NCBI GenBank assembly: GCA_002299465.1
Contig: DBNX01000018.1
Location: 11,987 to 75,986, forward strand
DNA from: Patescibacteria group bacterium UBA661
Lineage (GTDB): Bacteria > Patescibacteriota > Minisyncoccia > Phycocordibacterales > UBA918
Reading direction: 5' to 3'
Length of the DNA: 64,000 nt
This document shows, in pieces, positions 632 through 48,332 of this stretch; the first letter of the stretch is position 1; every line of letters starts with the position of its first letter. The position numbers and the translations under genes are program-made. The notes beneath the pieces are model-generated. The model was not told the origin of the DNA, did no database searches, and worked only from the letters and a program-made list of their open reading frames with translations.

Positions 632-683
632 TGAATTTTTGTCTTGAGCTGATAAGATTATTAGAGCTGTCTAAAAAAGTGCT

Positions 684-1076: not shown

Positions 1077-1112
1077 TGGGGTTTTTAGGATCGGGGCGAT
1101 TATTAGATTTGT

Positions 1113-23351: not shown

Positions 23352-23373
23352 TTGTTCCACATGCTTCTATGTC

Positions 23374-30095: not shown

Positions 30096-30254
30096 AAATT
30101 ATTTACCTTGCTCAGTATAGCAGTTGCTAGGCGATTTTTTCGACGAGGCTGTTTGAAAGTTGATAGCTGGGGGTGAAATTTTTTGCCAAACTGAGATGGG
30201 GATAGGCGCGAGCTAGTTTGCCCGGCTGGGCAAACTAGCTCGCGCCAGAGACAG

Positions 30255-30327
30255 TCCGCCAACCTGGACTCGAACCAGGGACCACAGAGGTATAAGCTCT
30301 GCGCTCTACCAACTGAGCTATTGGCGG
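30255..30327 (-). tRNA. tRNA-Ile with anticodon UAU
   Basis: 73-nt clean cloverleaf CCGCCAA-TA-GCTC-AGTTGGTA-GAGC-G-CAGAG-CTTATAC-CTCTG-TGGTC-CCTGG-TTCGAGT-CCAGG-TTGGCGG-A. The anticodon loop CT-TAT-AC gives UAU. CCA is not encoded. Confidence 0.85.
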
Positions 30328-30587: not shown

Positions 30588-32774
30588 CTACTCCAGATGC
30601 AGGGATTGACTTAGGACACTAATTTTTTTAGCAATAAGTGGCTGGTCACGGAGTTCGTAATCAGCGGCGATAAGTTGTTTGGCTTCTTTTCTAGCAGCTT
30701 CAACTAACTTTAAGTTTTTAAGCGCTTCCATTCCTAGGTCAGAGAGACCCCATTGCTTTAGGCCATAGAGCTCCCCGGCGCCGCGTTGGGTAAGATCGTA
30801 CTCAGCTAGCGCAAAACCATTTTTGGCTTCAAGTAAGGCGCGTAGTCGCTCTTGAGTTTTACCACTTTTACCAACGCTGTCTTTAGAGGTGACAGCAAAA
30901 CAATAGGGCTGGTGAGTACCGCGAATGACTCGCCCCCGCAATTGGTGTAATTGTGCCAAACCAAAACGTTCCGCCCCTTCAATAATTATGTTGGTGGCGT
31001 TAGGAACATTGACACCCACCTCAACGACGGAAGTGGCAACCAAAATATCAATCTCGTGGGCGAGAAATTTTTCCATAACGGAAGTTTTTTCACTCGGAGT
31101 CATTTTACTATGCAGAATGGCGATGCGGGCATTTTTGAAAATGTTTGTCTGCAAACGTTCGGCTTCTTGTTTCACTGATTTAAGTTGGAGGGCGGTTTCT
31201 TTACTGGGGTCGGGTTCGTCGATGCGAGGGCAAATTACATAGACTTGTCGTCCGGCTTGAAGCTCCTGTCTGAGGTGAGTGTAAACCTCCTCAATTTTAC
31301 TGGGGCTGGAGATTTTTGTGATGATCGGTTTGCGACCTTTCGGCATTTCGTCGAGAAGAGAAATGTCCAAATCACCATAAATAGTGAGGGCGAGAGTGCG
31401 TGGAATGGGCGTGGCGGTCATCGACAAGAGATGGGGCAGACGAGTGTCTTTTTTTGCCAGGGCGCGGCGTTGGTTGGTACCAAAACGGTGTTGTTCGTCA
31501 ATAATAACGTAGGCGAGATGTTTGAATTCAATAGTTTTGTAAATCAAGGCGTGAGTGCCAATCACAATCGGTATCTCGCCATTCTTAATCCACTTGGCGA
31601 GTTGTGCTTTGGAAATCCGAGTCGGCTTAGTGGGGTCTGATTTCGAGGGAAACTTGTAACAGCCGCTACCAGTAATCAATCCAAGAGAAATTGGCAAGTG
31701 TTTGAAATATTCAATGAAAGAAGCGAAATGTTGTTTAGCTAAAATTTCGGTCGGTGCCATATAGGCGACTTGCAAGTTTCCGTATCCGATTTTCTTGCCC
31801 AGCCCTTCGGGCGGTAGAGAAGTCGCTACGGCATAGGCGGTAGTGGCAGCCACGGCCGTTTTGCCACTACCGACATCACCCTCCAGTAATCGAGACAGCG
31901 GGTGTTTACCGCCAAAATCTTTGATGATGTCAGCAATCGCGCGGTGTTGTCCGGAGGTGAGTGAAAAAGGAAAACGTTTAATAAAAGCAGCTAGATGTTC
32001 TGGGTCGGTCTTTATTAAATAACTAGAAGCAGCACTTACCGCTGCCCGTTCGCGCGCCTTAGCAGTTTGAATGTAGAAAACTTCCTCAAAGGCGAAGCGT
32101 TTACGAGCACTCGCCGCGTGATCTTGTTTTTTGGGAGTATGTATCCAGATTAAGGCCGTTGCCAATGAGGGCAAGTTATAGCGGTTTAAGATGGTTGCAG
32201 GAATTGGGTCAGTGAGACGGGTGAGAACACCAGTGGCAAAACATTTTTGCACAGCGTGAAAAATCCACTTGGAGGTAATGCCTTTCGTCTCACGATAGAT
32301 AGGGTAAATGGTTTCGTCTAAAGTTTCGGTATTTCTAAAAATGGAATCGTGGCGGTCGATGGGTAAAGTGTCGAGCTTTTCCACCTCGGGATTGGCTAAA
32401 TATAATTTGCCGACACTGCCTGTCACGCGGCCGGCCACTTTGACGTACATACCGTCAGTCAACATCTTAGCCAAGTAGGGTTGGTTGAACCACATAATTT
32501 TAATACGAGCGGTGCCATCCTCAACCCAGCCTTCAGAAATTGGCGTGCGACTCTTCCACGACTTGCGAGTGTTTAAACCACCGAGTTGACCATAAACAAC
32601 CGCCTCTTGGTCTTTTACGAGTGAACTAACAGACTGAATAGAAGAGATGTCTTCATAGCGTTGGGGAAGGTGCAGGAGGAGTTGTTCAACGGTATTAAGG
32701 TTGAGTTTTTTAAGAGCGCGGCGGTGCGCCTCATCCAGACGAAAGTGAAGTGAAATTAAATCAGTTGGTAACAT
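30588..32774 (-). CDS. recG: ATP-dependent DNA helicase RecG
   Basis: 728 aa. Wedge domain, then SF2 helicase motifs (DVGSGKT, DEQHRFG). Confidence 0.9.
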   Translation of the reverse strand: MLPTDLISLHFRLDEAHRRALKKLNLNTVEQLLLHLPQRYEDISSIQSVSSLVKDQEAVVYGQLGGLNTRKSWKSRTPISEGWVEDGTARIKIMWFNQPYLAKMLTDGMYVKVAGRVTGSVGKLYLANPEVEKLDTLPIDRHDSIFRNTETLDETIYPIYRETKGITSKWIFHAVQKCFATGVLTRLTDPIPATILNRYNLPSLATALIWIHTPKKQDHAASARKRFAFEEVFYIQTAKARERAAVSAASSYLIKTDPEHLAAFIKRFPFSLTSGQHRAIADIIKDFGGKHPLSRLLEGDVGSGKTAVAATTAYAVATSLPPEGLGKKIGYGNLQVAYMAPTEILAKQHFASFIEYFKHLPISLGLITGSGCYKFPSKSDPTKPTRISKAQLAKWIKNGEIPIVIGTHALIYKTIEFKHLAYVIIDEQHRFGTNQRRALAKKDTRLPHLLSMTATPIPRTLALTIYGDLDISLLDEMPKGRKPIITKISSPSKIEEVYTHLRQELQAGRQVYVICPRIDEPDPSKETALQLKSVKQEAERLQTNIFKNARIAILHSKMTPSEKTSVMEKFLAHEIDILVATSVVEVGVNVPNATNIIIEGAERFGLAQLHQLRGRVIRGTHQPYCFAVTSKDSVGKSGKTQERLRALLEAKNGFALAEYDLTQRGAGELYGLKQWGLSDLGMEALKNLKLVEAARKEAKQLIAADYELRDQPLIAKKISVLSQSLHLE

Positions 32775-32907
32775 AACGTCATCATAGCAAAAGTCTGAGG
32801 AAAAGTTATAGAAGAAGTTTTTTGTGGAGAAGTCTAAATCGATACTAGATAATAGTTTTTGGGTAGGATTGAGAGGGTAGGCACTCTCGGGACTTTACAA
32901 ATTTTAT

Positions 32908-32936
32908 TTGACAAATAGCATAAATAATGTTATTAT
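32908..32936 (+). promoter_or_regulatory. consensus sigma70 promoter
   Basis: TTGACA, 17 nt, TATTAT. Confidence 0.5.
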
Positions 32937-32942
32937 CAAAAC

Positions 32943-33297
32943 GTTGTAAAGTTCTTAAACCAGCAGCAAAAAAGGAGAAATTATGCTCTGCTGCGCTTAT
33001 GTCGACGGCAACTTGTTTTTTTTGGCAGCGGTTTCGTCAGTTGGCGAAACCGCTGCCCGTAGCCCCACCCAACAGGGTGGTCGCATTCGCCGCAAACCCG
33101 CTTTGCGGCGGCGGGGCGGCAAGATCACCAATTTCTGGCTGGACAGCTGGAAGCGTACCCGTTCGCGCGCTAACGAGAGCAACCACCGGCGGCGGCAGTG
33201 CTTTGAGACCAACCGCCGCCTGGGCGTGATTGTCTGGTAGCGGTAACCGACAAGCCATGCCGATTCAAAACACCTTCCTAGGAGGGTGTTTTTTCAT
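32943..33297 (+). other. GC-rich, highly structured ~350-nt transcription unit. Either an 85-aa Arg-rich small protein (32983-33240, SD AAGGAGA) or a structured ncRNA.
   Basis: Consensus promoter upstream. Perfect 13-bp hairpin at 33024-33057, with further hairpins at 33065-33080, 33090-33108 and 33188-33220. Terminator at 33267-33297. GC ~65% against a ~45% background, with ORFs open on both strands. Confidence 0.3.
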
Positions 33298-33480
33298 AAA
33301 ATTACCAGCTGCATAATTAAGAATTTCTCACGCGGATTTATCCACGGGGTTCAAAACAAGCCCTAGCCATTTAGTCATTGACGCAACGCGTTGTCGTGGT
33401 ACTATCTAGGTCAGAGTGGATTGTTCTTTAACAAAACAATCCGTAAACAACTTTTAACTAACTCGTAAAGGAGTGTTGAG

Positions 33481-34137
33481 ATGCTCACAAAAAAAGTTGA
33501 GTTTGACCAAGTTTGGCTTGAGCTTATGTTGGGTAGATACCAAGAGGTCGTCTCGGTCAAGCGGCAGTCTGCTGACTCCAGAACTTACTGGATATGGATT
33601 CAGCTTGTGAAAAAGTCCAAAACAAAGAGTGGCAAAAAAATCTTGGCGGTGCGTTACGGCAACAGCACTGCCGTCCACTGTGAACTGTTGCCGCTAACAG
33701 CTCTCTATCAGACTGTTTGTCCGCCGACCTTGAACAGAGGACAGCAGTTGATCTGGAGTATTTTGCGCCGGCAGTTTCGTCGTGAATTAGACTTGATTGC
33801 GAGTTCGTTTATGACTATCTGTGGGGTGCACTATCCGCCACTTCGACCCAGTCATCTTTTGCCAAGAAAAGTCCCAGAGCGATTTTTCTCGCTAGCTACA
33901 CCGGCTGGCACATTGAGTTTTTTGCGTCAAGTTGAGTTTGGTGCGGTCACTCTTGTGCTCGTTTCGGCTACTTTGGGACATCCCTTTCGCCAGTCTCTGG
34001 AAGAAGGTGTGAACATAAAAATAAGAATAGCCGATGGGACATTTGCCCCATACCTGAAATCGAGCCGAGAGGAGCGTCTGGTGTTGGCCTTGCGGTCGGC
34101 GCTCATTCCGACTGGGCGACCACAGCAACTGTCTTAA
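33481..34137 (+). CDS. hypothetical protein (218 aa) with a strong SD (AAAGGAG)
   Basis: Long ORF in a GC-rich cassette. No recognisable motif. Confidence 0.5.
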   Translation: MLTKKVEFDQVWLELMLGRYQEVVSVKRQSADSRTYWIWIQLVKKSKTKSGKKILAVRYGNSTAVHCELLPLTALYQTVCPPTLNRGQQLIWSILRRQFRRELDLIASSFMTICGVHYPPLRPSHLLPRKVPERFFSLATPAGTLSFLRQVEFGAVTLVLVSATLGHPFRQSLEEGVNIKIRIADGTFAPYLKSSREERLVLALRSALIPTGRPQQLS

Positions 34138-34152
34138 GCTAGGAGGTGTTTT

Positions 34153-34353
34153 ATGGGTACGCAAGCTAGGGTGAGTCGTTTTCATCAGGAGTTGCAAGCG
34201 GTGGTAGAGGTGGCCAACCAGCAATATGATGACAATTACGAAGCACACCAAAAGGCGTTTCGAGTCAGAGAGAAAGAACTCGATGCTCTCTTTGACAAAT
34301 ATCGGCATCGTTTTAAGGTTGGACTTCCGTACGTTCCGTCACCGCGGCGGTAG
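34153..34353 (+). CDS. small hypothetical protein (66 aa) with SD AGGAGG
   Basis: ORF with a strong SD at 7-nt spacing, followed by a strong terminator. Confidence 0.4.
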   Translation: MGTQARVSRFHQELQAVVEVANQQYDDNYEAHQKAFRVREKELDALFDKYRHRFKVGLPYVPSPRR

Positions 34354-34360
34354 GGCATTT

Positions 34361-34412
34361 AAGCCCCGCTCGCTGACAACTTTCGTTGTCAGCGAGCGGG
34401 GCTTTCTCTTTT
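34361..34412 (+). terminator. rho-independent terminator with a 20-bp perfect stem
   Basis: AAGCCCCGCTCGCTGACAAC-TTTC-GTTGTCAGCGAGCGGGGCTT plus TCTCTTTT. Confidence 0.6.
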
Positions 34413-34647
34413 CAGATATTTAATCTGTCGTATACGGTTGAGATAATTTTATACACACATTTATACGCACACTGCTTTTGAATCAATTTTTTGAATAATC
34501 ATTACTCTACTCGATTGCGCGCAATCTAGTAAAGCCAAGTCGAAAAATGACCGCTGGTCTAATCTTAAAGGCCGCCTGTTAAGGCTCACCCCTCTTCCTC
34601 GTTGGATTTTATATTAGCAAGAGAATCTGGAGCTGGCCCTCGCAAAA

Positions 34648-35706
34648 TCAAAATAATCCAAGACTACCCACATAATCTACCCCGGCTGATCTAACTTCTG
34701 TAAATGTACGTAGGGTTCTGGCTGCTCTTAAGAGACCAAAGGTGCCCGCTCCACTAATTTCAACATCATATAGAGAAAGTAATCCGCCTGATCTGACACA
34801 GATGACCTCCCCTCCAACCTGAGTGAGGATTTCTTCTATCCTGTCTGGAGAAGTACCTTCCTGAAAGCTGACCATTAATTTATCCTCAATAAATGTTCCA
34901 AATATCAAACTTCTCACCACCCTTACCTCTGCTGAGCCATAGCCCCGACAGGTGGTGGAAAATCTTGTGACCAGAAGAGCTATAGTCGGGGAATAGACTT
35001 TTTCACTTGGTTTTTCTGGAACTACCAAGGCCGCGCGGAAATAAACATTGGTTTCTTCTGGGTAGGGACCAATAATAAGATTTCTGCCGTAAAGAAAATT
35101 CCCAGCAACCAGATCACCATCTTTCCCGTCATCAAATAATTGACCAATCTCCCTGACAACTTTTCCGTGCTCATCAATCTCTTCCACCACCACCGAAATC
35201 GCTCGTTCCTGCACACCGGAATATCTAAGACTGAAAAAAACTTCCTGTGACTGATTTACTGAAATAACATCGGGATGGAACCCTAACGAATTGATGTTTC
35301 TTTGCGCTGGCTTGGGGTCTGCTTCCAATTGGCATTGTTCTCTATGTGTTGCGTTCCCAATAAAGCTGCAAAGAGTGACGTCCTTTTCCGACTGGGCGTA
35401 AACAAAATAGCAATAATCTCTTGAGTCGGCGTACTTTATTTCTTCACAACCTGGAATCGCTTGTGGCGCAAGAGCGGGTGCTGTGATTGCTCCGCTTTCC
35501 TGTACTAGTTCTGTATGTACACCAATTTCTTCCGTATCTAGTACTAACGACTCCTCCGCGGCGGGGTTCATAACGGTATAGATACCAAAACCAGCCAATA
35601 CTACAAATAGAAAACTGGCCACTATTACCAGCACAAAAAACCACCGCGAAACGGGTGGCTTTCCAGCAACCTTATTAACTAGATTTGTGGGCTTGTGATT
35701 GTTCAT
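34648..35706 (-). CDS. membrane-anchored extracytoplasmic hypothetical protein (352 aa)
   Basis: Single N-terminal TM helix, Cys-rich region, no confident domain. Confidence 0.5.
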   Translation of the reverse strand: MNNHKPTNLVNKVAGKPPVSRWFFVLVIVASFLFVVLAGFGIYTVMNPAAEESLVLDTEEIGVHTELVQESGAITAPALAPQAIPGCEEIKYADSRDYCYFVYAQSEKDVTLCSFIGNATHREQCQLEADPKPAQRNINSLGFHPDVISVNQSQEVFFSLRYSGVQERAISVVVEEIDEHGKVVREIGQLFDDGKDGDLVAGNFLYGRNLIIGPYPEETNVYFRAALVVPEKPSEKVYSPTIALLVTRFSTTCRGYGSAEVRVVRSLIFGTFIEDKLMVSFQEGTSPDRIEEILTQVGGEVICVRSGGLLSLYDVEISGAGTFGLLRAARTLRTFTEVRSAGVDYVGSLGLF

Positions 35707-36036
35707 AAAAATAGTTGTTAAAACACTTACTATGTTACCACTTTCTGTCGAGGTTGGTGTTAGAGATATTAGACACTGTTAGGAAAACTCTTTACCTACG
35801 GTAGCCAAGGCACTTTATCAAGCTCCGCGGTGGATAGTCACAGGTAAGACTTGCGTAAAAATGTTGTTATGTTATATTCGACAGTAAGAAACATTCTCTC
35901 CTGTTCGCGCTAAGTGCGAACTCCAGCCATTTTAAATTACTCAGGTTGGCAGTTTGTTGCTGTGTATGAAATCGGAAATTGCGAGTGTTTCTTAGTTAAT
36001 GTTAATTTAGATTACCAAGTTTAACGGAGCTGATTT

Positions 36037-36891
36037 ATGGAACCAATTGTTTTAGCGACTTTAGTGACGTTGGGAGCTGGACTCGCTACCGGTATCGGTA
36101 GCTTGTTGGCCTTTACCCAAAAGAGACCGAGTGATAAATTCCTGTCTTTTATGCTCGGGTTGTCGGCGGGTGTGATGTTGTATGTCTCGATGATCGAGAT
36201 TTTTCAGAAGGCCGTTGGCAGTCTGACAGAAGCAACAGGCAGTGATGGGCAGGGATACTTGTGGGCTACGATCGGTTTTTTTGCGGGCTTTATAGTTATC
36301 GCCATTATCGACCATGTCTTTGATTACATCCACCAAGATAAAATGGAGGGAGAACCACACACTCACTCACACCGACTCCTTAATGAGGATGAAAATGGGC
36401 GAACACCACTGGAGCGCACCGCAGAAAGTGTCGAGCGCAAGGGGTTAATGCGGATGGGTGTATTTATGGCAATTGCGATTGCCATCCACAACTTTCCGGA
36501 AGGATTGGCGACGTTTATGGCGGTGCTCGAAGAGCCAGCTCTCGGTATAGCGATTGCCATAGCGATTGCCATCCACAACATTCCAGAAGGGATTGCTGTG
36601 TCGATTCCCATTTACCGCGCGACGGGTAGCCGACTTAAAGCTTTTTGGTATTCGTTTGCTTCCGGTCTAGCTGAGCCAGCCGGAGCGTTGCTCGGCTTCT
36701 TTCTCCTCAGCTACTTCATCAACGATTACTTCTTTGGTGTCGTGTTTGCGGGAGTGGCCGGTATCATGGTTTACGTGGCACTTGACCAGCTCTTGCCGAC
36801 TGCCCAAAAGTACAATCACCACTTGCCTATAATCGGCGTGTTTGTGGGTATGGCAGTGATGGCTTCTAGCTTGGTGCTGTTTGCGCTGTAG
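36037..36891 (+). CDS. zupT: ZIP-family divalent metal transporter (ZupT-like) with an internally duplicated AIAIAIHNxPEG motif
   Basis: AIAIHNFPEGLA and AIAIHNIPEGIAV ZIP signatures. 8 TM helices. His-rich loop. Confidence 0.85.
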   Translation: MEPIVLATLVTLGAGLATGIGSLLAFTQKRPSDKFLSFMLGLSAGVMLYVSMIEIFQKAVGSLTEATGSDGQGYLWATIGFFAGFIVIAIIDHVFDYIHQDKMEGEPHTHSHRLLNEDENGRTPLERTAESVERKGLMRMGVFMAIAIAIHNFPEGLATFMAVLEEPALGIAIAIAIAIHNIPEGIAVSIPIYRATGSRLKAFWYSFASGLAEPAGALLGFFLLSYFINDYFFGVVFAGVAGIMVYVALDQLLPTAQKYNHHLPIIGVFVGMAVMASSLVLFAL

Positions 36892-36915
36892 GAAGGTAAT
36901 CTGATTAGAGTTTTA

Positions 36916-36952
36916 AAAGCCCCGTGACGCGAAGCGTCACGGGGCTTTCTTT
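36916..36952 (+). terminator. zupT terminator
   Basis: AAAGCCCCGTGACGC-GAA-GCGTCACGGGGCTTT plus CTTTGGG. Confidence 0.6.
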
Positions 36953-36975
36953 GGGTTGTTGTCCGCAAATCTACT

Positions 36976-37004
36976 ATGTACAAAACCATCTAAATATGCT
37001 ATAA
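36976..37004 (+). promoter_or_regulatory. promoter of the small-ORF cassette
   Basis: TGTACA, 17 nt, TATAAT. Confidence 0.4.
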
Positions 37005-37052
37005 TTAAAAGTGGATTCAGATAAACCATACGACACAAGAAAGGACTTTGAC

Positions 37053-37301
37053 ATGGCTAAAAAAAGTGCACGCCCACCGCGCGTACAGGCGGCGGTGCTA
37101 CGGGGTGACCGAGCTGCCTGCAGTGAGTTCGGGAAAAGAGGTGCGAAAAAACGCGCCGAAATAAAAGCAGAAGAAATAAAGGAGAAAGAAGAAGATCAGC
37201 TCGTGGAAGATGTCTTTAAAAAGATTCGAGCTGACGAATTATTGAAAGCTTTTGCAAGGCGCGACAGGCAAGCAAACCTGGACGTCTGCCCAATAGACTG
37301 A
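37053..37301 (+). CDS. small basic hypothetical protein. The ATG at 37053 follows SD AGAAAGGA; the tracked ORF runs from the GTG at 37011.
   Basis: GC-rich ORF with promoter and SD. No known motif. Confidence 0.4.
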   Translation: MAKKSARPPRVQAAVLRGDRAACSEFGKRGAKKRAEIKAEEIKEKEEDQLVEDVFKKIRADELLKAFARRDRQANLDVCPID

Positions 37302-37319
37302 TTTTTTAGGAGGAGAAGG

Positions 37320-37511
37320 ATGAGCAAACAAAGCAAGTGTCGACAAAGGGGCGCGCTCAAAGTCGCCCAAAATCGGTCAGCTCGCCGGCAAGCAAACGAA
37401 GGCTTGCGGGAGATTTTGCAATCCCTGCCTGAAGAAGTCGAGCATCCTTCTGAGTGGCAGTTGTCAGATCGCGAAGATGCCCGAGCGCTCAAAACAGACC
37501 GTTTTGAGTAA
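37320..37511 (+). CDS. small hypothetical protein (63 aa) with SD AGGAGGAGAAGG
   Basis: Strong SD. Followed by terminator CCCGCGCCACCGCGCGGG plus a T-run. Confidence 0.4.
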   Translation: MSKQSKCRQRGALKVAQNRSARRQANEGLREILQSLPEEVEHPSEWQLSDREDARALKTDRFE

Positions 37512-37558
37512 AACAAACCCCCGCGCCACCGCGCGGGATTCTTTTTAGGAGAAGTGAG

Positions 37559-37924
37559 ATGTCTCAGTATGAAAATCTGGGCGGAGCAAGTCCGCGCACT
37601 GCCGATGGCGTGGTTACCGTTATGGGGGGCACCAACCAACAGCTTACCGCCGTGGCTTGTGTGCCAATGAGCGTTCAGGCAAAAGCACTTAGTCGTTGTA
37701 TGGCAGCCCTGTACGAGTTCGGCGAATTTTTCGAGTTTGGGGCTGGGAACAGGTGCTACTTTAGTGTGACTTGCGACGCTAACAGCAAAGTGATCTTCGT
37801 TAGCTTCACGCTGGAGGAAAAGTCGTTTAATTTGGTACTCATTCGCTTCCTTGAGTACTTGCGACAAAGTCGCGTTATGGTGAATCCGATTGTTGTGGAC
37901 CTCACCCAGGCACGGTTGCGGTGA
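37559..37924 (+). CDS. hypothetical protein (121 aa) with SD AGGAGAAG
   Basis: Strong SD. Two terminators downstream (37940-37975, 38000-38030). Confidence 0.45.
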   Translation: MSQYENLGGASPRTADGVVTVMGGTNQQLTAVACVPMSVQAKALSRCMAALYEFGEFFEFGAGNRCYFSVTCDANSKVIFVSFTLEEKSFNLVLIRFLEYLRQSRVMVNPIVVDLTQARLR

Positions 37925-38024
37925 TGCCGTAATTGTAATTTTTTTGGTTTTCTCAACCACGAGTACTACTCGTGGTTTTTGTTTTACAAAAACCCGCGGC
38001 GTTGGCGCGCGGGTTTTTTAAAAA

Positions 38025-38240
38025 CTAGGAAAGCTGCTGGCGGATTTCTTGCGGGGAATCTCCGCAAAGATGCCCTTTATCGATGTGGACGAGAACGTGA
38101 GCGAGCAGTCCGGCCGCATTGTTGTCCCCTTGTTCTCTAGCTTTTGCTATCAGACAAAGAGCGTTTTGAGCAGTCACTTCTCCTTCAAAGTGGTAACCCA
38201 GGCGTTCCAGGTGGGGTAGCAGGTGTTTGGGTACGTACAT
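38025..38240 (-). CDS. small hypothetical protein (71 aa)
   Basis: ORF only. Confidence 0.25.
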   Translation of the reverse strand: MYVPKHLLPHLERLGYHFEGEVTAQNALCLIAKAREQGDNNAAGLLAHVLVHIDKGHLCGDSPQEIRQQLS

Positions 38241-38390
38241 TACAATACTCCTTTCCGACTAAGAGCTTAGCACTGAATTGTTGTAAATTCAATCAGAAAA
38301 AGATAGCCGGTGTGAGTAAACAAGTATCCCCCAAAAATTCGTTTGCTTTTAAAAAGGAATTGTGTTATAAATTCAAACTAACTTTCCTCC

Positions 38391-38465
38391 CCACCGGACG
38401 GGTCAAATGAAATCACAAAACACCTTGGTGTGTGGATAGGTGATTTTATTTGACCCGTCCGGTGG
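38391..38465. repeat. 26-nt near-perfect inverted repeat (one mismatch) around a 23-nt spacer
   Basis: CCACCGGACGGGTCAAATGAAATCAC … GTGATTTTATTTGACCCGTCCGGTGG. Confidence 0.6.
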
Positions 38466-38698
38466 TCGGATGTGGTGTTTATCACAAAAGAAAGAGGAAC
38501 TTTAGAGTGGAGTTCACAAAGGAAAACAAAGGCGGATTGTTCGAGCTGTCACGCCAAATTCGAGAAGCCTTGTTGGCTGGAATCAACCCCTTCTCAGTTT
38601 TGCCGGTTTCGTCGCAAAACAGAGGGACTGATTTCACCGACACGCGACCGACAATGCACGTCGTCGAACACTACGACACCGAGTGTCGTTGGCGATAA
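38450..38698 (+). CDS. hypothetical small protein. A GTG start near 38508 after an AGAGGAA SD is possible.
   Basis: ORF followed by a terminator at 38728-38762. Confidence 0.3.
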   Translation: MTRPVVGCGVYHKRKRNFRVEFTKENKGGLFELSRQIREALLAGINPFSVLPVSSQNRGTDFTDTRPTMHVVEHYDTECRWR

Positions 38699-38839
38699 AA
38701 ACTAAACCGAAGCAAACGCCACGGTTAAAAAACAAGCACACTCCGCGGAGTGTGCTTTTTACTGGCTCAGAATAAGATAATAAGTTGGCTTACCTAGGGA
38801 ATGGCTAAGAGTAGTTTTTTATTGTAAAAAATATGGTAT

Positions 38840-39388
38840 TTAAGAGCGGTTAGAGCGTAGCAGGTTGATATAAATAATTATGAGAAAGGCAAAAGTGACG
38901 GCTGACAGAAAGGGAAAAGTGACAAAACCATACATCTCAAATACTTTCGCGGCACAGTCAGAACTGCCATCGGTGAGGCAAGGCAATACTCCGGCTGCCA
39001 ACATTTCTGAGGGCAATGATTGATAAATGTAGTGATAAACAGCTACCCCCAGCCCAAAAATTGATAAAGCCAGGCCATAGAGAGGGAACATAACCTGATC
39101 TTTTAAGCGGTAAGCAATGACTGAGAGCAGGGCTTGTGGATACAGAGCGATGCGTTGTAGCCAACAGAGGGAACACGGCACAAATCCAAAATATTCTGAA
39201 TAAACAAGTGATAGCACCAAACTACCGGTCGTGGTCGCGATCATTAGGTACCAAGCATAAGGACGTAAGTAACGCTGGAAAATTTTGCTGTCATTTAGAA
39301 AATAATCCACAAACAAAGCAATCGTCACACCCAGCAAGATTAACCCGCCAGTGGCCAATAAGAGATTTAAGGTGTGAAGTGGTGACAT
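38840..39388 (-). CDS. disulfide bond formation protein B (DsbB/BdbC family)
   Basis: 4-TM protein with PCSLCWLQRI (cf. BdbC PCxLCWYQRI) and a second Cys pair. Confidence 0.7.
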   Translation of the reverse strand: MSPLHTLNLLLATGGLILLGVTIALFVDYFLNDSKIFQRYLRPYAWYLMIATTTGSLVLSLVYSEYFGFVPCSLCWLQRIALYPQALLSVIAYRLKDQVMFPLYGLALSIFGLGVAVYHYIYQSLPSEMLAAGVLPCLTDGSSDCAAKVFEMYGFVTFPFLSAVTFAFLIIIYINLLRSNRS

Positions 39389-39486
39389 AGTTAACGGTCA
39401 TTGTAACACGTCAACGCACTCATAAAAATCTCAGCCGAAGGGCAGAGGGTAGGGGAGTTTTTTTCTGACAAACAATTAGTTTTGTC

Positions 39487-39690
39487 CCAAAACACAGCCG
39501 AGGTACTAATTACGCTCGGAGAGAGATTTTTTCTACCAGCAGTTGACTGGTAGAAAAGGCGAACCATATACTTCAGCTGTGTTTTGGATATCAGTTTTTA
39601 TAAACTCAATCGCGGCTTAAAATTAACCAAGTTAATTTTAAGCCGCGAATAAAGTGGGGAAGATTTTTTAATACAAATCTTCCCCAGCCG
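39487..39690. repeat. cluster of nested and stacked perfect hairpins (structured intergenic element)
   Basis: 12-bp long-range inverted repeat CCAAAACACAGC / GCTGTGTTTTGG (39487-39498 and 39576-39587) encloses hairpins at 39498-39519 and 39527-39557. Then a 15-bp-stem hairpin at 39613-39647 and an 11-bp-stem hairpin at 39656-39686. Confidence 0.45.
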
Positions 39691-39725
39691 CTTAGCGGCC
39701 GGCTATCTTGTCGGACAGCAGCCAC

Positions 39726-40478
39726 TCAGCGTGGCATGTGTCTAAGTCCTTGCCTAACGTATGGAACAACCTTACGCAGACAAACTCCTGCCACTCCTTC
39801 GAGTGGCAGGGCAAGACTAGCCTGCCCCACGGACCGGCGTCGATCACGACGTCGGTGCCTTTTTTTAGTAAGGACACCTCGCGCAGGTCTGCAAGACAGG
39901 CGATGGCGTCGGTGTAACCGGTATGTGACTTCATTTTCTTTCCTTTGGGGGTTGGTTAAAAGAACTTTATCTCTTTGAGGATTCCAATCAAAGCTCATCG
40001 CCCGAATCACTGCCTCCTGGACATTTTCGTCCAGCTTCAGTTTTTCGGAGATCGAGGTCGGTGTCGTGCGTCGGCGAACGCGTCCGTCTGAGAAAACTTG
40101 CCGGTCTTCTGTTAAGCGGAAACGCTTGCCGTCAATGTCCGCGAGGACATCCACGCCGAGCACCGCGACGCGACGAACAAGCCGTCCGCCCTCATCGCGC
40201 GCGAACTGCGCGCGGATGAGGGCAACCCCGAGGTCCCGCCGCCGATCCACGAGCTTCATCAGCGCGGGGAACGGGGCCTGGGCCTCGACCGCGACGACCT
40301 TCTGGCCGTCGGTCTCGGTCTTGGCGACGAGCGCCTTGACCGCGCCCCCCGGGTCGTCCCCGTAGGGTATGTCTACGGTGACAACGCGAACGTCGTCACC
40401 GTAGACCGCCTGCAGGAACTGCAGGCGGTCTACGTCTGTAGGGTCGCGGGTTATGAAGAACTGTCCTGGGAACCATTC
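39726..40478 (-). pseudogene. GC-rich foreign gene remnant. The frame is open from 40478, the first ATG is at 40259, and there is a probable frameshift near 39930.
   Basis: ~62% GC island. Reading frame …FFITRDPTDVDRLQFLQAVYGDDVRVVTVDIPYGDDPGG… has no start codon. Overlapping alternative-frame ORF 39692-39934. ORFs are open on both strands. Confidence 0.4.
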
Positions 40479-40794
40479 CTAGGACATTTTCGGTAAGAAG
40501 CGGTGGTTAATCGCTTCCGACCGATCGATGTCCTCTCGAGCTGTGCTCGAGGTTGATCGGGTGAAGTAGTCCAGCTGCCGTCACCAGTTGACGGTATCAG
40601 TCGGTGGAGTCTGGTTTGCGGCCTACTCCCAACTTCGTGCAAACGAATCAAGTTTTAATGCGAGTTGTTCCGAGACTCTCTCTTCCTGCCACACTTTCGG
40701 CTGTGGTCACCGCTTAGGTTTCCCTAAGGCGAGCGTCTCGGCTCGTATCTCTCTCCTGATTCCCTGTAAAAAACTTTCTTTCTGCACTCGCTCG

Positions 40795-40822
40795 GAAATG
40801 AACAAATGTATTTGTTCATTTC
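40795..40822. promoter_or_regulatory. perfect 13-bp palindrome (operator-like)
   Basis: GAAATGAACAAAT-GT-ATTTGTTCATTTC. Confidence 0.5.
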
Positions 40823-41008
40823 GCTCACTCGTTTGAAAGTAAGGTACTCTCTCCGAAAGTGATGAAGCTCTCTCTCCCACCTCTTTCTTAACTGCATACA
40901 TCATACCAGAGGTTAAATGTATTGTCAAGAAGTATATACAAAAAACGGCTAAATGTGGCTAAAATTACTATTTTTAAATAAAAAACTGCATAGTTATCAA
41001 CATATAAA

Positions 41009-41026
41009 TGTCACGGTAACGTGACA
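41009..41026. promoter_or_regulatory. 7-bp perfect palindrome 10 bp upstream of the TrmB-like gene
   Basis: TGTCACG-GTAA-CGTGACA. Confidence 0.45.
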
Positions 41027-41036
41027 ATAACGATAG

Positions 41037-41849
41037 ATGTGCTATTGTGTAAGGATGATTCAATTAGAATATACAAAAGAAATCACTGATACTGGCCTCT
41101 CTAAAGAGCAGGCGGTTGTGTATGAAGTCTTATTAAAGCTTGGGGAATCCCCAGCAAGCGCTATTGCGAAGGCAATTCCAAATGGCACTACACTGTCTCG
41201 ACCACTTGTATATAAAGTGCTTGAGGAATTGATTGGTCTTGGTCTAGCCAGTAAATCGGAAGAAGCTAATAAAATTGCCAAGTTCACTCCAAAGCACCCC
41301 GTGGCTATTACGAAGGTGATTGACGAGCAGAAAGAGCGTATCGAACGCACGAAAAAGCAGTTTTTGGCTACATCAGGCAAGCTCTCATCACTCTTTAATC
41401 TGAGTGTCGGAAAGCCGGGGGTTCAATTCTATGAAGGTGAAGACGGGGTGTGGGAGGTACTTATGGATAGTCTTTCTGCTACCGAGGAGATTCTCACCTA
41501 TGCTGATCTTGAGGCTATCACCAAATATATCCCGGCACTTAATGCCGAATACTCTGCGCTGCGCGAGGAACAGGATGTGAAGAAACGTGGACTGGTGATT
41601 GATTCACCAGAGGCACGAAAGTTCCTCAAGTCATACGACGGCAAGGTCACGAATACCAAGCTCATTACCGCTTCAGAAGGCTTTTCACCATTTCAGACTG
41701 TGGTTCAGATATACGACAACAAAGTATCGTATATCACGCTCACTGATGAATATCTGGTGGGAGTAATTATTACTGACCAGTACATTGCAAATACACACAA
41801 ATATCTCTTTGAGAGTCTGTGGAAGTTGAGTAGCGGAGAAGTGATCTAG
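41037..41849 (+). CDS. TrmB-family winged-helix transcriptional regulator
   Basis: N-terminal LSKEQAVVYEVLLKLGESPASAIAKAIPNGTTLSRPLVYKVLEELIGLGL matches the TrmB HTH. Confidence 0.7.
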   Translation: MCYCVRMIQLEYTKEITDTGLSKEQAVVYEVLLKLGESPASAIAKAIPNGTTLSRPLVYKVLEELIGLGLASKSEEANKIAKFTPKHPVAITKVIDEQKERIERTKKQFLATSGKLSSLFNLSVGKPGVQFYEGEDGVWEVLMDSLSATEEILTYADLEAITKYIPALNAEYSALREEQDVKKRGLVIDSPEARKFLKSYDGKVTNTKLITASEGFSPFQTVVQIYDNKVSYITLTDEYLVGVIITDQYIANTHKYLFESLWKLSSGEVI

Positions 41850-44263
41850 GCCGCTTTCTTCAAATCCTCTTGCGGTGGAGTGAACTCGTCTCGGAGGGTG
41901 TCACTGAGCTTTTCAAAGACGAGATATGTCTTGCCTTGGTGTGTGAAGTATCGAGTTAATCCCATAGCATTTTGTAGCTCGGGATAGGTTTCAGCGCTTG
42001 ATTGTTCGCGAACCACAATTGACCCAGATTCTTCAGTCTGATTCAACAGTTCCTCAATTGATTTCTGCTTGCTTTCGAGTTGTCTGGTTGAGTCTTTAGA
42101 GCGCCAGATTTCAAAGCTTGGTTTACCAGCGAGTGAATAGAATCCGGTAGCAACAAAACCATCTTCAATATATTTTTTAGTGATTGCCTGCGTGGGGTCA
42201 CAGTGAGCCATCATGGGGCGACCGTTCCCAAGCTGATCCTTGATGGTTTCTTCAAGCATTATTCCACCGACACCACTGTATGCCGGATCGGCGTTAAAAG
42301 AACCGAAGTACGACACTTCTTTCCCAGTATAGTCGCGAAGCGTATCAAAGCGGTTGAAACTGACAATCTTACCTTGGTCGCGCAATATGCGATATGTTGT
42401 GTTTGGGTTATCAAAACTTTTCACGAGTGAACCAGCTACCGTTGCCTTAAATTCATTATTTTCAGGTTCTGGGTACGCCGTATCATAATTCTTTCTGAGG
42501 AGTTCCTGCATACGAACCTTATCTTCTTCGGTTAGAGCCTCGGGTGAGACCGATTCAATTTTTTCTGTGCCGACTTCTTGGAGTAGGGCAACATACTCTT
42601 TCGCAGCCGCTACATAGTTTTCGATTTGTGAAGCAACCTCGCTTGGATTATGTGCTCGCACTGCTTTTTCAAGATCCTTTTGTGCTCTGTTTAAAATGTT
42701 TTCGCGGACCTGATTTGCCAGATCGGTACATAGATCTCCCTCGCAATTAGATACTTCGCGGACCAATTGCTCTGCACGATCAGCACTATTAAGGAGGTCA
42801 CTGTAATATCTAAAAACCGTACCCGCGACTTCCTCATGCTGACCGAAAGCAACGATGTTGTCGCCAAGTGTTTCGTCTCCTCGTTCAAGCGATAGAAAGG
42901 TGCGCATTCCGTTGACACCGTAGCGTGAAGTAAATTGTTTTATGGATTCAATAAATTCAGGAGTAACACTCTTCAGGTAGTTGAGAAAGAAGTACTGTTC
43001 CTTTAGGTTCAAGTCAAGTAGCTTAAAACCAAAGGCTTTTTCCAATGATGCACGCACACGGAGATCCATAAGTGATCGATATTCAGCAACACCATCATTA
43101 CTTACTGCCGAACCACCGATACCTCTACTTTCGAGAAGGTTCTTGATGGTTATTGGTCTATAGTTACCTTGAACATCTCTCTCAATTACATAGAATGCGT
43201 CGTTGGCAACATAATCAGCAAAACAATCTTTTGTTAGGCCGAGCATCAGGCTAGCTCTGTCGTGTATATGGAAAGATTCAACGGATCTATTTGCGTTTGA
43301 TTCTTTTATTAACGCATCAAGCTGATTTTCTGAAATGGTTATTTCTGAACCGTCAGTGTAATCATTATTTGAATTTCCCCACGCTTCCATCACTGCATCG
43401 TACTTGATTGTTTCAAAAACCGTGTGAAGGCGGGGCTCTAGTCTATTCTCAATATAGTCAATAAGCACATACCTGAAACCAACATCGCGATACTCATGAA
43501 TTCTTCGATCAATCTCATGTACAGGATCATCAAAAGCATCATAATCTTCTTTTTCCAATTCTTGTGATTGATATAGAAGATCAATCACCATCGGTATTCG
43601 TCGAGGATCGATGTTTTTTATATCAAAGTAGGTATCGATAGCATCAAATACACCTTCTATGTCAAGGTCTGATTCATGTCTAGCATATCCAAGGATGCTT
43701 ATAATATCACTGGAAATCTTCGATCTCCAACCAAGTGTCGAGAGGGGGTCTTCGTTGCGTATAATCTGATAGAATCTTTGCCACTCATTATCAAATTTAG
43801 AAATATATATATCACAATCAAGATCGTCCCACTCACCGTCTCCTGTATAGAGTTTTTTAATTAAACGGTTTATGTGCAAGTTCTCGAATCTCTCCCCGTT
43901 CAGGTCGAGTTGTGCGTATACGGCATGTTCTTGTTTTTCGTATTCTGCTACTATATTTTCATACTCCTGGTAGATTTGTGATATCTGCCCAATTGTTGTT
44001 TCTAAATACGTTGTGCCAATGTCAGGGAGTTTCTCTAAGATTCGTTCAATTACATGACCATTTATTTTTTTAAGATTTGACCCAAAGTAAAGTACTAAAA
44101 ACTCTCGCACATCACCTACGCACTGGGGGTGATTTCGAAAATAATCCCCAATCTCCGGCACTGCTGGAAGTTCGGATTCTATGCGCTGAATCGTTTCGAG
44201 TCGTTTATCTTTTAGTGCTATCGACTCGGCTTCTTTGTTGATAATGGCTGGTCTTTCAGACAT
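41846..44263 (-). CDS. large hypothetical protein (805 aa), acidic, no recognised domain
   Basis: Uninterrupted 2.4-kb ORF convergent with the TrmB gene. Confidence 0.6.
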   Translation of the reverse strand: MSERPAIINKEAESIALKDKRLETIQRIESELPAVPEIGDYFRNHPQCVGDVREFLVLYFGSNLKKINGHVIERILEKLPDIGTTYLETTIGQISQIYQEYENIVAEYEKQEHAVYAQLDLNGERFENLHINRLIKKLYTGDGEWDDLDCDIYISKFDNEWQRFYQIIRNEDPLSTLGWRSKISSDIISILGYARHESDLDIEGVFDAIDTYFDIKNIDPRRIPMVIDLLYQSQELEKEDYDAFDDPVHEIDRRIHEYRDVGFRYVLIDYIENRLEPRLHTVFETIKYDAVMEAWGNSNNDYTDGSEITISENQLDALIKESNANRSVESFHIHDRASLMLGLTKDCFADYVANDAFYVIERDVQGNYRPITIKNLLESRGIGGSAVSNDGVAEYRSLMDLRVRASLEKAFGFKLLDLNLKEQYFFLNYLKSVTPEFIESIKQFTSRYGVNGMRTFLSLERGDETLGDNIVAFGQHEEVAGTVFRYYSDLLNSADRAEQLVREVSNCEGDLCTDLANQVRENILNRAQKDLEKAVRAHNPSEVASQIENYVAAAKEYVALLQEVGTEKIESVSPEALTEEDKVRMQELLRKNYDTAYPEPENNEFKATVAGSLVKSFDNPNTTYRILRDQGKIVSFNRFDTLRDYTGKEVSYFGSFNADPAYSGVGGIMLEETIKDQLGNGRPMMAHCDPTQAITKKYIEDGFVATGFYSLAGKPSFEIWRSKDSTRQLESKQKSIEELLNQTEESGSIVVREQSSAETYPELQNAMGLTRYFTHQGKTYLVFEKLSDTLRDEFTPPQEDLKKAA

Positions 44264-45420: not shown

Positions 45421-45990
45421 TTAGCCACGACGCAGTCCGGCATGCAGTTTGATGGCACGTACCACGTGATTTGCAACCTGCTTTGCGGTTCGATTGTCAG
45501 TGGAGACACTTTTGTTGATGAAGAGCTCTTGATTGAACAGCTCGTCATATTCCTGCCGCAACTGCAGATTTCTTGGCACCATCTGCGTGTCATTGATAGA
45601 CATGCCACGCTCGATGAGACGTTGCAGCTGGTGCTCAGGACTGGCGGTAAGCAAAACGGTCAGGTCCGGCTGCAGCAAGCTTGAGAAGTCACTCTCTGCG
45701 ACTTGGACACCGATAACCTTGTGATAGACATAGGTCGTCATCCAGTACCGATCGCATACAACCGACTTACCCTCCGAAATCAGTTGCCTGATTTCGTCAG
45801 CCGCAACGACAACCCCATCGCGGAAGAAGTTGAACTTCTGCTGTGGAGATCCATTCAGGTCGACTTCTCTCCGTCGCTCCATATACTCTTTCGGAGGAGT
45901 AGCATAAGGAACGAAGCCGAGCATTTCTGCAACAAGACGGGTTACGGTTGACTTGCCAACCCCGTCTATACCTTCAAGAACAACGAACAT
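45421..45990 (-). CDS. tmk: thymidylate kinase. The true start at 45990 follows AAGGAGG; the tracked ORF extends to 46182.
   Basis: MFVVLEGIDGVGKST P-loop and LID region. Confidence 0.8.
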   Translation of the reverse strand: MFVVLEGIDGVGKSTVTRLVAEMLGFVPYATPPKEYMERRREVDLNGSPQQKFNFFRDGVVVAADEIRQLISEGKSVVCDRYWMTTYVYHKVIGVQVAESDFSSLLQPDLTVLLTASPEHQLQRLIERGMSINDTQMVPRNLQLRQEYDELFNQELFINKSVSTDNRTAKQVANHVVRAIKLHAGLRRG

Positions 45991-46613: not shown

Positions 46614-48332
46614 ATGGAGTACCTTTACAATTCTCGCTTTGCGCCTTCTCAATTCATTCAAGAAAAAATCTTGAAGAATGGGAAAATCTGCGCAGTACAC
46701 GAAACTCCTGATCAAATGGTGAATCGTGTCGTCGGTGCAATCTATGCTGCCGATCAAAAATTCACTACCAGCAAGTTGGCTGGGGCGTTCGCTGATAGCA
46801 TCGGGTCAATGATGGATGCTGGTAGTATTGTCTTCAGTACACCGATCATGACAAATGCTGGTAGGCTGGACTTTCGCAGGCCGCTTTCCGCCTGCACCGT
46901 TCCGCCTGTGAATCTCAATGGCGACTGGTCAAACATCCGCAAGATGGTTGATACTTACCATGCTGAGGCGATGGGAACAGGTTTCAACTTCGATATGGTC
47001 AATGATCCTGTCGAGGTATTGCTAAAACTGAACGAAATCGCTGTAGCGGGAAGCAAAAGTGGCAACGAAGATCGACCGGTTGGCAATATGGGTATTTGCT
47101 CTATCGACCATCCTCAAATCGCAAACTTTGTGGTCGCCAAATCGCTTCGTCGTGGTCTCGACTGGAAATTCAACATATCAGTCGATACCCCCGAGGTCTT
47201 CTGGTTGGCAGCAGAGTCTGCGTCAAACTGGAGACTGCGAGATGGCAGCGCAATATCTGCATCAGCACTACTCGACCTGATCGTAGAGTCAGCACATCAC
47301 TGTGCTGATCCTGGGATTGTGTTCATGGATCGAATCAACCGAGACAATCCGATCCCTGGTGCGGGCAGATATATGAGTATTGCTCCATGTGCCGAAGTAG
47401 GTCTCGTGCCCGGCGAGACTTGTCAATTTGGTTACCTTAACTTGGGTGCTTTTGTGTCAAATAAGACTATCGACATAGAAGCGTTGCAATCAGTCACGGC
47501 ACTGATGACACGGGCCCTGGATGATTGTCTGGAAATCAGCTTGGAAAGTTACCAAGTTGAAGAAAGCAAGGAGGTTGTAGGTTTGCGACGGAAGATAGGT
47601 ATCGGCATTTGCGGCCTTGCCGACATGCTAGTGAAACTGAATATTCCGTATGACAGCGAGGAAGGCAGAGAAATCTCCAGAGACGTTGTCGCATTGATAA
47701 ACTACACTTCTAAGGTAGCCTCACACGAACTAGCACAGGTTCGCGGTTCGTTTCGGGCGATGGATCTCCTTTATGGGTGTCGACACATTGAGGAACCGTC
47801 CTACGTTCAACAGCGTTACGGGAATCACTCTACACGCTGGGTAAGCGAAGCGGATTGGTACAGTCTGGGTAACAAAATTAGAAAAACCAAACAGCTCAGA
47901 CACAGCACTACAATCGCTCTGCCTCCAACGGGAAGGAGTGGGCTGGTTATCAACGCTTCACCTGGTGTTGAGCCTCTGTTCAGTTTCAAAAATCCTGACG
48001 GAGAAATCCGTGAGGTTGTGCGTCAGCTTATCCCTGATAATGAAATCTTGCAGAAGATATCAGAATCAGGGAAGATACCAGCGAGCGTATCCGAAACAAC
48101 CAGACGAGTTCTTGTAACCAGTACAGACATTGCTGCAATCGATCACCTGAAAATGGTGGCGGCTCTGCAAACAGTCGTAGACGAGTCAATTTCAAAGACG
48201 ATCAATCTTCGTGCCGAAGCAACGGTGTCAGAAGTGCGAGAAATCTACGAAAGCGCCTATCGTCTGGGACTGAAGGGTATGACGATGTACCGTGAAGGTT
48301 CTTCAATATCCCAACCAGTACGACTGAAATGA
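46614..48332 (+). CDS. ribonucleotide reductase class II-like protein (572 aa) with SD TAGGAGG
   Basis: Finger-loop region SIAPCAEVGLVPGETCQFGYLNLGAF resembles NPCGE…CNLGSINL of class II RNR. Confidence 0.55.
   Translation: MEYLYNSRFAPSQFIQEKILKNGKICAVHETPDQMVNRVVGAIYAADQKFTTSKLAGAFADSIGSMMDAGSIVFSTPIMTNAGRLDFRRPLSACTVPPVNLNGDWSNIRKMVDTYHAEAMGTGFNFDMVNDPVEVLLKLNEIAVAGSKSGNEDRPVGNMGICSIDHPQIANFVVAKSLRRGLDWKFNISVDTPEVFWLAAESASNWRLRDGSAISASALLDLIVESAHHCADPGIVFMDRINRDNPIPGAGRYMSIAPCAEVGLVPGETCQFGYLNLGAFVSNKTIDIEALQSVTALMTRALDDCLEISLESYQVEESKEVVGLRRKIGIGICGLADMLVKLNIPYDSEEGREISRDVVALINYTSKVASHELAQVRGSFRAMDLLYGCRHIEEPSYVQQRYGNHSTRWVSEADWYSLGNKIRKTKQLRHSTTIALPPTGRSGLVINASPGVEPLFSFKNPDGEIREVVRQLIPDNEILQKISESGKIPASVSETTRRVLVTSTDIAAIDHLKMVAALQTVVDESISKTINLRAEATVSEVREIYESAYRLGLKGMTMYREGSSISQPVRLK

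Follow-up and report, generated by a model that had tools for sequence, protein, structure and literature searches.

Small resident genes, an inserted unit and an operon remnant: a probable mosaic beside recG in a Paceibacteria genome

Results

Genes and signals in the interval beside recG

We analysed a stretch of 64,000 nucleotides (nt) from Patescibacteria group bacterium UBA661 (GenBank assembly GCA_002299465.1, contig DBNX01000018.1, positions 11,987 to 75,986), hereafter the window, and in particular the interval that runs from the recG gene to about position 40,900. This interval holds five cassettes of short open reading frames (ORFs), namely o85 (cassette 1), o218-o66 (cassette 2), o82-o63-o121 (cassette 3), o71 and a gene for 63 amino acids (aa; cassettes 4 and 5), followed by a GC-rich gene remnant, patch 3 (Table 1). 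A preliminary description of this DNA had taken three GC-rich patches of the interval for gene cassettes recently acquired from a different lineage or a phage. Based on the comparisons below, the interval is very probably a mosaic of resident small genes, an insertion that carries o85 and the dead remnant of a Csx3 operon. The host belongs to the Paceibacteria/Parcubacteria within the Candidate Phyla Radiation (CPR, Patescibacteria): the RecG of the window is 80-83% identical to RecG of many metagenome-assembled genomes of this group.

In a scan of 200-bp windows (mean GC content 0.449, standard deviation 0.056), values above the mean plus two standard deviations are found within the interval only at 32951-33300 (maximum 0.66) and 39701-40550 (maximum 0.73). 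The three patches had been called markedly GC-richer than their surroundings, which is true of these two stretches and not of o218, o66, o82, o63, o121 and o71. The GC content of these six ORFs (0.49-0.53) is ordinary, many housekeeping genes lying at 0.47-0.53, and their codon-usage z-scores range from -0.6 to -2.1, so that deviation in GC and codon usage is confined to the same two stretches.

The expression signals of the preliminary description are all present. Near-consensus sigma-70 promoters precede cassettes 1 and 3 (TTGACA-17-TATTAT and TGTACA-17-TATAAT), each with an upstream TG, and an additional one on the minus strand, TTGACA-17-TATGAT, faces patch 3. Shine-Dalgarno (SD) sites of the AGGAG or GGAGG type stand 5-9 nt before the starts of o85, o218, o66, o63, o121 and o71. 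Terminator-like hairpins number 25, compared to 9.7 +/- 3.3 in shuffled sequences, and ORFs are indeed open on both strands. The best consensus promoter of the whole window (12 of 12 positions, with the TG) drives the gene for transfer-messenger RNA (tmRNA; 23373-23771); it is a perfect TTGACA-18-TGnTATAAT located at 24006-23976 on the minus strand. Accordingly, the consensus promoter is a native signal and no mark of foreign origin.

Table 1. Coordinates of the features in the interval and of the flanking recG gene (window positions)
Feature	Position	Strand	Remarks
recG	30588-32774	-	core gene flanking cassette 1
Lineage-specific insertion	about 32800-33370	+	separates recG from the o218 promoter; AT-rich spacer, promoter, o85 unit, terminator, spacer
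Cassette 1 promoter	32908-32936	+	TTGACA-17-TGnTATTAT; 11/12 positions match, with TG
o85	32983-33240	+	arginine-rich orphan ORF of 85 codons (15 arginines); 62% GC; GC content at third codon positions (GC3) 0.73; SD AAGGAG
Cassette 1 intrinsic terminator	33262-33296	+	hairpin AACACCTTCCTAGGAGGGTGTT, then T-run
Cassette 2 promoter	33378-33405	+	TTGACG-16-TGgTACTAT; conserved in L095
o218	33481-34137	+	family of about 210-230 aa; adjoins recG in this clade
o66	34153-34353	+	small helical protein, probably co-transcribed with o218; SD TAGGAGG
Cassette 2 terminator	34361-34404	+	20-bp stem
Cassette 3 promoter	36977-37005	+	TGTACAAA...ATGCTATAAT; conserved in L095, L009, L012
o82	37053-37301	+	small basic protein
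o63	37320-37511	+	small basic protein; SD TAGGAGGAG
GC hairpin and U-run between o63 and o121	37520-37545	+	attenuator or internal terminator; same hairpin with another loop in L095 (11889-11915)
o121	37559-37924	+	small alpha/beta protein
Two terminator hairpins	37955-38020	.	common to the converging cassette 3 and o71
o71	38025-38240	-	small protein; SD AAAGGAG
Long inverted repeat/hairpin upstream of 63-aa gene	38386-38461	+	perfect 18-nt arms; 3' arm overlaps -35-like TTGACC
63-aa gene	38507-38698	+	GTG start; terminator 38734-38757
Patch 3 promoter and leader	40480-40928	-	promoter 40928-40900; about 410 nt of highly structured, ORF-less leader, fold z = -4.6
geneA fragment	40194-40478	-	start-less; C-terminal third missing; GC 0.69, GC3 0.86
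geneB fragment	39990-40140	-	internal, Nudix-like; in-frame fusion to the geneA fragment
o80	39692-39934	-	orphan ORF of 80 codons, frame differing from that of the fused fragments, at the 3' end of patch 3; followed by terminators at 39686-39655 and at 39648-39610

Cassettes 2-5 have positional orthologues in a relative

The related contig L095, whose RecG is 82% identical to that of the window, shows the gene order of the window: ftsH, an ABC transporter, ftsX, czcB, recG, a homologue of o218, a 68-aa gene, ZIP, genes for 81, 62 and 151 aa, and dsbB. Between the two, identity in the flanking core genes is 62-96%, and conservation extends to the promoters, the SD sites and the hairpin between o63 and o121.

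Protein similarity extends across the cassettes. We compared window and L095 by Nei-Gojobori counts, giving the proportions of nonsynonymous (pN) and synonymous (pS) differences. o218 is 40% identical to its L095 counterpart (tblastn, E 2e-53; pN 0.42, pS 0.81), and o66 is 59% identical to the 68-aa gene located 3' of that counterpart (pN 0.32, pS 0.88). In cassette 3, o82 matches the 81-aa gene (39%, E 8e-11; pN 0.43, pS 0.83), with weak similarity also to a 110-aa ORF of L009 (E 5e-5), and o121 matches its homologue at 52% (E 3e-30; pN 0.36, pS 0.73). The place of o63 is taken in L095 by an SD-led ORF of 62 aa, which can be aligned by force at 38% identity (pN 0.45, pS 0.77). o71 has homologues in L095 (58%; pN 0.26, pS 0.80) and L104 (37%), and the 63-aa gene has one in L095 (59%; pN 0.28, pS 0.94).

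For the cassette genes overall, pS is saturated (0.73-0.94), pN is 0.26-0.45 and pN/pS is 0.30-0.59; recG, for comparison, has a pN of 0.13 and a pS of 0.87. Because the orthologues hold the same positions, synonymous sites are saturated and pN stays below pS, cassettes 2-5 appear to be real protein genes, inherited vertically rather than imported recently. They would be old and lineage-restricted, with amino acids replaced 2-3 times faster than in recG. The recent acquisition proposed for o218-o66 and cassette 3 does not agree with the homologues found at the same positions in L095. When 80 GTDB relatives were compared by blastn and tblastn, only ZIP and dsbB proved to be conserved, which at first suggested that relatives lack the cassettes; L095 overturned this impression. 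Clustering of 213 SD-led small ORFs from relatives returned mostly singletons and antisense artefacts.

The o218 protein represents a real family that adjoins recG in four or five lineages. A word-indexed protein search recovered only o218 itself, and a full HMMER scan was needed to find the family: full-length homologues are P0014 (41%, E 1e-46), encoded on contig L095, and P0015-18 (29-31%). Their alignment has 12 invariant columns, two of them histidine. Homologues stand beside recG in L095, L099 and L104, and L006 has at recG a 224-aa ORF that is remotely homologous (hhalign 75%, E 2.6e-5). No match to o218 was found in Pfam, NCBIfam, PADLOC or the PDB, the last also searched with the family profile, or in scans of viral contigs and metagenomes. 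A single-sequence AlphaFold2 model of o218 was unusable (confidence score pLDDT 38).

The small ORFs likewise have no match in Pfam, PHROGs, PADLOC or NCBIfam. For o121, a single-sequence AlphaFold2 model predicts a beta-alpha-beta-beta-alpha-beta fold (pLDDT 57) whose PDB matches are generic ferredoxin-like only, and the viral-contig scan gave no match. The basic proteins o82 and o63 are putative binders of nucleic acid or of the ribosome. Upstream of the 63-aa gene, the long inverted repeat could be an operator or a leader structure; its copy in L095 (12727-12785) carries compensatory changes in both arms.

Two modes of translation initiation in the clade

An SD-like motif precedes only 5 of the 57 non-overlapping window ORFs of at least 100 aa. 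As stated in the preliminary description, core genes lack an SD: this is the case for the ribosomal-protein genes, ftsH, recG and the genes for 1360 and 1045 aa. The few larger window genes with a strong SD include those for ribonucleotide reductase (46614-48332, plus strand; SD TTAGGAGG) and thymidylate kinase (45421-45990, minus strand; SD AAAGGAGG).

We surveyed start sites across the clade, in the window plus about 80 related loci (L006-L085; 1,200-1,530 ORFs). In 176 of 729 genes, the end of a -10-like hexamer lies 7-10 nt ahead of the ATG, compared to about 7 genes for each of the other positions. Examples of this leaderless type in the window are recG (start 32774), the gene for the 805-aa protein p805 (44263) and a 252-aa ABC-transporter gene (27322), whereas the cassette genes have leaders of 40-70 nt. 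Leaderless-type starts are found in 17-21% of ordinary-GC genes compared to 1.6% of genes more than 8 points above the GC content of their own genome. For strong SD sites the corresponding values are 6% and 26%. The two features are nearly exclusive, with both present in only five genes. Overall, SD sites are enriched among GC-richer genes (43/207 compared to 62/994, odds ratio 3.9, p = 2e-9; decoy rates at most 3%).

This promoter geometry implies that leaderless mRNAs are probably widespread in this Paceibacteria clade. The lack of an SD in core genes would then result from leaderless-type promoters or from SD-less positions inside operons. Likewise, the SD contrast seen in the window would mainly separate leaderless or SD-less core genes from leadered SD genes, and would not be a mark of foreign origin. 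The earlier view that the discordance of signals marks foreign DNA is thus not borne out: the promoter is native, as the tmRNA gene shows, and the lack of an SD accompanies leaderless-type promoters. Each resident unit (o218-o66; o82-o63-o121; o71; the 63-aa gene) would combine a native sigma-70-type promoter, a leader, an SD-driven start and an intrinsic terminator. These units would stand out only through their route of initiation, most genes of the clade being leaderless or SD-less inside operons.

Leaderless mRNAs are translated in Actinobacteria, Deinococcus and archaea, where the start codon follows a -10 box after a short, constant interval and an SD is absent. The clade analysed here has in common with these systems the fixed short distance between -10 box and start and the absence of an SD. 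It differs in that leaderless initiation is read here from the sequence alone, and in that a smaller class of GC-richer genes with leaders and SD dependence exists alongside it. A literature search on SD or leaderless use in CPR bacteria returned nothing relevant.

An inserted unit in a variable slot upstream of recG

The gap between recG and o218 measures 706 bp in the window compared to 156 bp in L095; in the contigs L099 and L104, recG is directly followed by the homologue of o218. Since the o218 promoter and 5' untranslated region (33378-33480) align with the L095 intergenic region, the segment at about 32800-33370 is read as an insertion. In this lineage only, a GC-rich unit of ~570 bp with promoter, SD, o85 and terminator would have been placed between recG and the o218 promoter.

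No homologue of o85 was found in 160 related loci, and it is absent from L095, L099 and L104. A word-indexed search among 5.8 billion proteins returned identical copies only, and the DNA of the unit has no match in phage or plasmid collections. Together with its GC content, this supports acquisition of the o85 unit. Its product could be a small basic arginine-rich protein or a structured small RNA of about 350 nt, with the protein very slightly favoured. The transcript (32943-33296) folds with a z-score of -3.6 and contains one perfect hairpin of 15 bp, and frames are open on both strands; in o85 itself, GC3 is above the GC content of the first and second codon positions and SD and ATG are well placed.

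The o85 unit would be an autonomous, moron-like expression unit. Like phage morons, it encloses one gene between a promoter and a terminator of its own, exceeds the genome by 17 points in GC content and is placed between two resident transcription units. Unlike them, it lies outside any prophage, has recG, ZIP and dsbB as neighbours without phage genes in the vicinity, and is of uncertain coding status. No PHROG matches were obtained, and the DNA of the unit matches nothing in the phage collection.

The slot upstream of recG is a turnover hot spot. In about twelve relatives it holds different GC-rich (0.60-0.69), SD-led genes, and only 7 of 46 proteins of the slot have a Pfam domain. The genes found about 100-900 nt upstream of recG in L009, L010, L012, L014, L015, L017, L021, L037, L040, L049 and L061 are non-homologous. 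They share a similar promoter, ATTGACTTT...TGnTATAAT. Slot contents include double cold-shock-domain proteins, a family of ~320 aa whose tail is K/R-rich, small membrane proteins and orphans.

Patch 3 and the Csx3-AAA operon

Patch 3 is dead. As described before, it is a start-less, frameshifted remnant: it has no start codon, its frame is shifted near 39945, and the Csx3 gene is deleted. The leader has no Rfam match. The geneA fragment is 66-74% identical in amino acids, and 64-75% in nucleotides, to geneA of L091, L086, L087 and L093, and the geneB fragment is 70-72% identical in amino acids to geneB of L092 and L088. Intact geneB has a weak NUDIX match (E 0.003). Scans of viral contigs with geneA, and of the PDB with the geneA family profile, gave no match. 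The terminal ORF o80 (GC3 0.74, codon-usage z = -4.1) has no homologue in any locus examined.

In other CPR contigs the intact operon consists of geneA, a Csx3 or Csx3-AAA gene, geneB and a gene for ~300 aa. The Csx3-AAA protein, in which the CRISPR-associated Csx3 is joined to an AAA ATPase, matches PADLOC family PDLC01045 (E 7e-42). In L086 the operon is divergent beside a TrmB gene, as in the window, with the TrmB proteins only 28% identical. Patch 3 has in common with Csx3-AAA neighbourhoods the adjacent geneA and geneB homologues on one strand, and it differs from them in having neither a Csx3 gene nor a CRISPR array, only fused fragments of the flanking genes. A deletion would have joined the front of geneA to the middle of geneB, removing the Csx3-AAA gene and both gene ends.

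The GC content of the operon is 0.50-0.58 in every carrier, compared to 0.36-0.41 for five of the carrier contigs and 0.52 for the sixth. Its pS to the window copy is 0.47-0.57; core genes compared between the window and the congener L095 have higher values. Because the operon is GC-rich in all carriers and its pS is low, patch 3 fits a remnant of an operon that may have spread horizontally among CPR lineages.

The CPR Csx3-AAA operons also carry hammerhead-like ribozymes and an unclassified rod-like RNA of ~190 nt. Type III hammerhead matches lie between the genes of intact operons (L087 778-858 and 1898-1978, L088 393-473, L091 3287-3351). Their scores of 30-38 bits (E 3e-5 to 6e-3) do not reach the gathering score of 48.5, and their CUGAUGA/GAAA cores are intact. 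In the window the hammerhead model RF00008 has no match at E up to 10 (39550-41050) or E up to 5 (32700-41100). The rod-like RNA lies just downstream of the operon (L087 3552-3739, L088 2078-2266, L091 3360-3552, L092 2355-2547) and belongs to no Rfam family. Its predicted structure comprises 61 pairs, and 13 of these show compensatory changes among four sequences. Against model R1, which we built for this RNA, window positions 39476-39592 (minus strand) score 9.9 bits (E 2.6), compared to 182-219 bits for L087-L092, and they share with the RNA only a hairpin plus AAAAAATCTCTCTCC. The Csx3 operon has the motif GGAGAGAG at either end, and the leader of patch 3 contains it too. Terminal inverted repeats or pairing between leader and small RNA were considered for this motif, and the window copy fails model R1. 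A literature search on Csx3 with hammerhead ribozymes returned nothing relevant. A geneB homologue of 199 aa is encoded in a 642-kb phage genome (L094 3764-4363; uncultured huge phage LR756502.1, about 90 kb), with geneA and Csx3 not nearby.

Other features of the window

A gene for tRNA-Ile (anticodon TAT, 30254-30327, minus strand) adjoins recG. At gathering and permissive thresholds, Rfam finds in the window solely this tRNA and the tmRNA, with no match in the patches; a RAGATH-6 match of 20.7 bits (gathering score 170) was dismissed as noise. Two larger minus-strand genes, for a 352-aa protein (34648-35706) and for p805 (41846-44263), match nothing in Pfam or PADLOC and lack a homologue in the 160 related loci. 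In relatives, a malic-enzyme gene occupies the place of the 352-aa gene. Finally, three tandem ORFs of 130-137 aa at 227-1526 (plus strand) have near-identical upstream sequence (tattagag.tgt.taaaaaag) and look like paralogues.

Discussion

The synteny with one relative overturned the foreign-DNA reading for most of the region. Of the recent horizontal acquisition proposed earlier, the parts that stand are the o85 unit and patch 3. For cassettes 2-5 the proposal does not hold, given their orthologues in L095. Resident small genes, one insertion and one dead operon remnant very probably account for the interval, and several points count against this account. The whole cassette set is present in only one syntenic relative (L095 and near-identical contigs), o63 has no BLAST-detectable homologue, and o85 has no comparative support, whether as protein or as RNA. 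The lower pS of patch 3 could partly reflect a shared GC3 bias instead of recent transfer. Leaderless initiation is read from promoter geometry alone, the 3' end of the organism's 16S rRNA with the anti-SD lies outside the window, and every ORF discussed here is known as sequence.

The best-surviving alternative is that the GC-rich stretches are genes for structured non-coding RNAs and their ORFs chance frames. The ORFs open on both strands and the fold z-scores of cassette 1 and of the patch 3 leader speak for it. So does o85, which is as arginine-rich as random GC-rich frames; by our estimate, an 85-codon frame stays open by chance at 62% GC with a probability of roughly 0.08. Cassettes 2-5, however, are conserved as protein without DNA similarity and have pN below pS, the antisense ORF of 254 aa over cassette 3 has no conserved counterpart in L095, no Rfam family matches, and o85 has well-placed SD and ATG and a GC3 above the GC content of its first and second codon positions. 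For the interval as a whole we therefore regard this explanation as unlikely; it applies now only to the o85 unit and the patch 3 leader.

That the cassettes are toxin-antitoxin, defence or anti-defence modules is improbable. Their genes are small and paired (o218/o66), the neighbourhood is variable and lies beside a Csx3-operon remnant, and an inverted repeat covers one promoter. Against this, none of them matches PADLOC, Pfam, NCBIfam or PHROG, and their inheritance is stable, not patchy.

Slightly more improbable still is that all three patches are recent foreign cassettes, from another lineage or a phage, that keep the promoters, SD sites and composition of their donor. SD sites, strong promoters and terminators do cluster here, GC-richer genes are more often SD-led across the clade, and the GC-rich genes of the recG slot differ from relative to relative; the o85 unit and patch 3 suit the idea. 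For cassettes 2-5 the idea is refuted by the positional L095 orthologues with saturated synonymous sites, by their ordinary GC content and by a promoter consensus that is that of the native tmRNA gene. A phage as the source finds no support either: there are no phage or mobility genes, no PHROG matches and no relatives in viral contigs. Among the ORFs scanned there is no integrase, transposase or phage family, and no flanking direct repeats were seen on reading the junctions, a search that was not exhaustive. Integron cassettes, which are promoterless ORFs with attC sites and an intI gene, are unlike these units, each of which has its own promoter; no integrase family was found in the ORFs scanned, and attC was not searched with a dedicated model.

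Despite the local jumps in GC content, an assembly chimera uniting DNA from two organisms, a suspicion raised in the preliminary description, is practically excluded: the same strain was assembled independently from five different samples, with contigs 99.97-100% identical to the window across 23481-44137 and over all junctions, and the gene order is common to L095.

With the resident genes and the two smaller parts thus separated, the bulk of the region consists of ordinary though poorly understood genes specific to the lineage. Acquisition fits two small parts, one of them a pseudogene remnant. The resident genes resemble the ORFan small protein genes of CPR/Patescibacteria, which are short, have no Pfam domain, are limited to a narrow clade, evolve fast under purifying selection and lie between core genes. 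They are unlike typical CPR ORFans in that each unit has a strong promoter, an SD leader and a terminator amid leaderless or SD-less core genes. Among them, o218 would define a new protein family, as yet uncharacterised, that is linked to recG in a single CPR clade.

For the annotation of CPR genomes, this means that SD sites, consensus promoters and modest GC bumps are unreliable marks of foreign DNA. The dead patch 3, in turn, points to an intact CPR operon with Csx3-AAA, ribozyme-like elements and an unclassified structured RNA. At the sequence level, the evidence suggests that leaderless starts are common in these bacteria and that a minority of genes has leaders and SD sites. We tentatively propose that two initiation regimes exist side by side, a leaderless or SD-less core and a leadered, SD-dependent class of GC-richer, largely uncharacterised, fast-turnover genes, which takes in the recG-adjacent slot and the Csx3-AAA operon, hammerhead-like ribozymes and rod-like RNA included. 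SD and leader may thereby mark a pool of accessory or mobile genes that CPR bacteria regulate separately.

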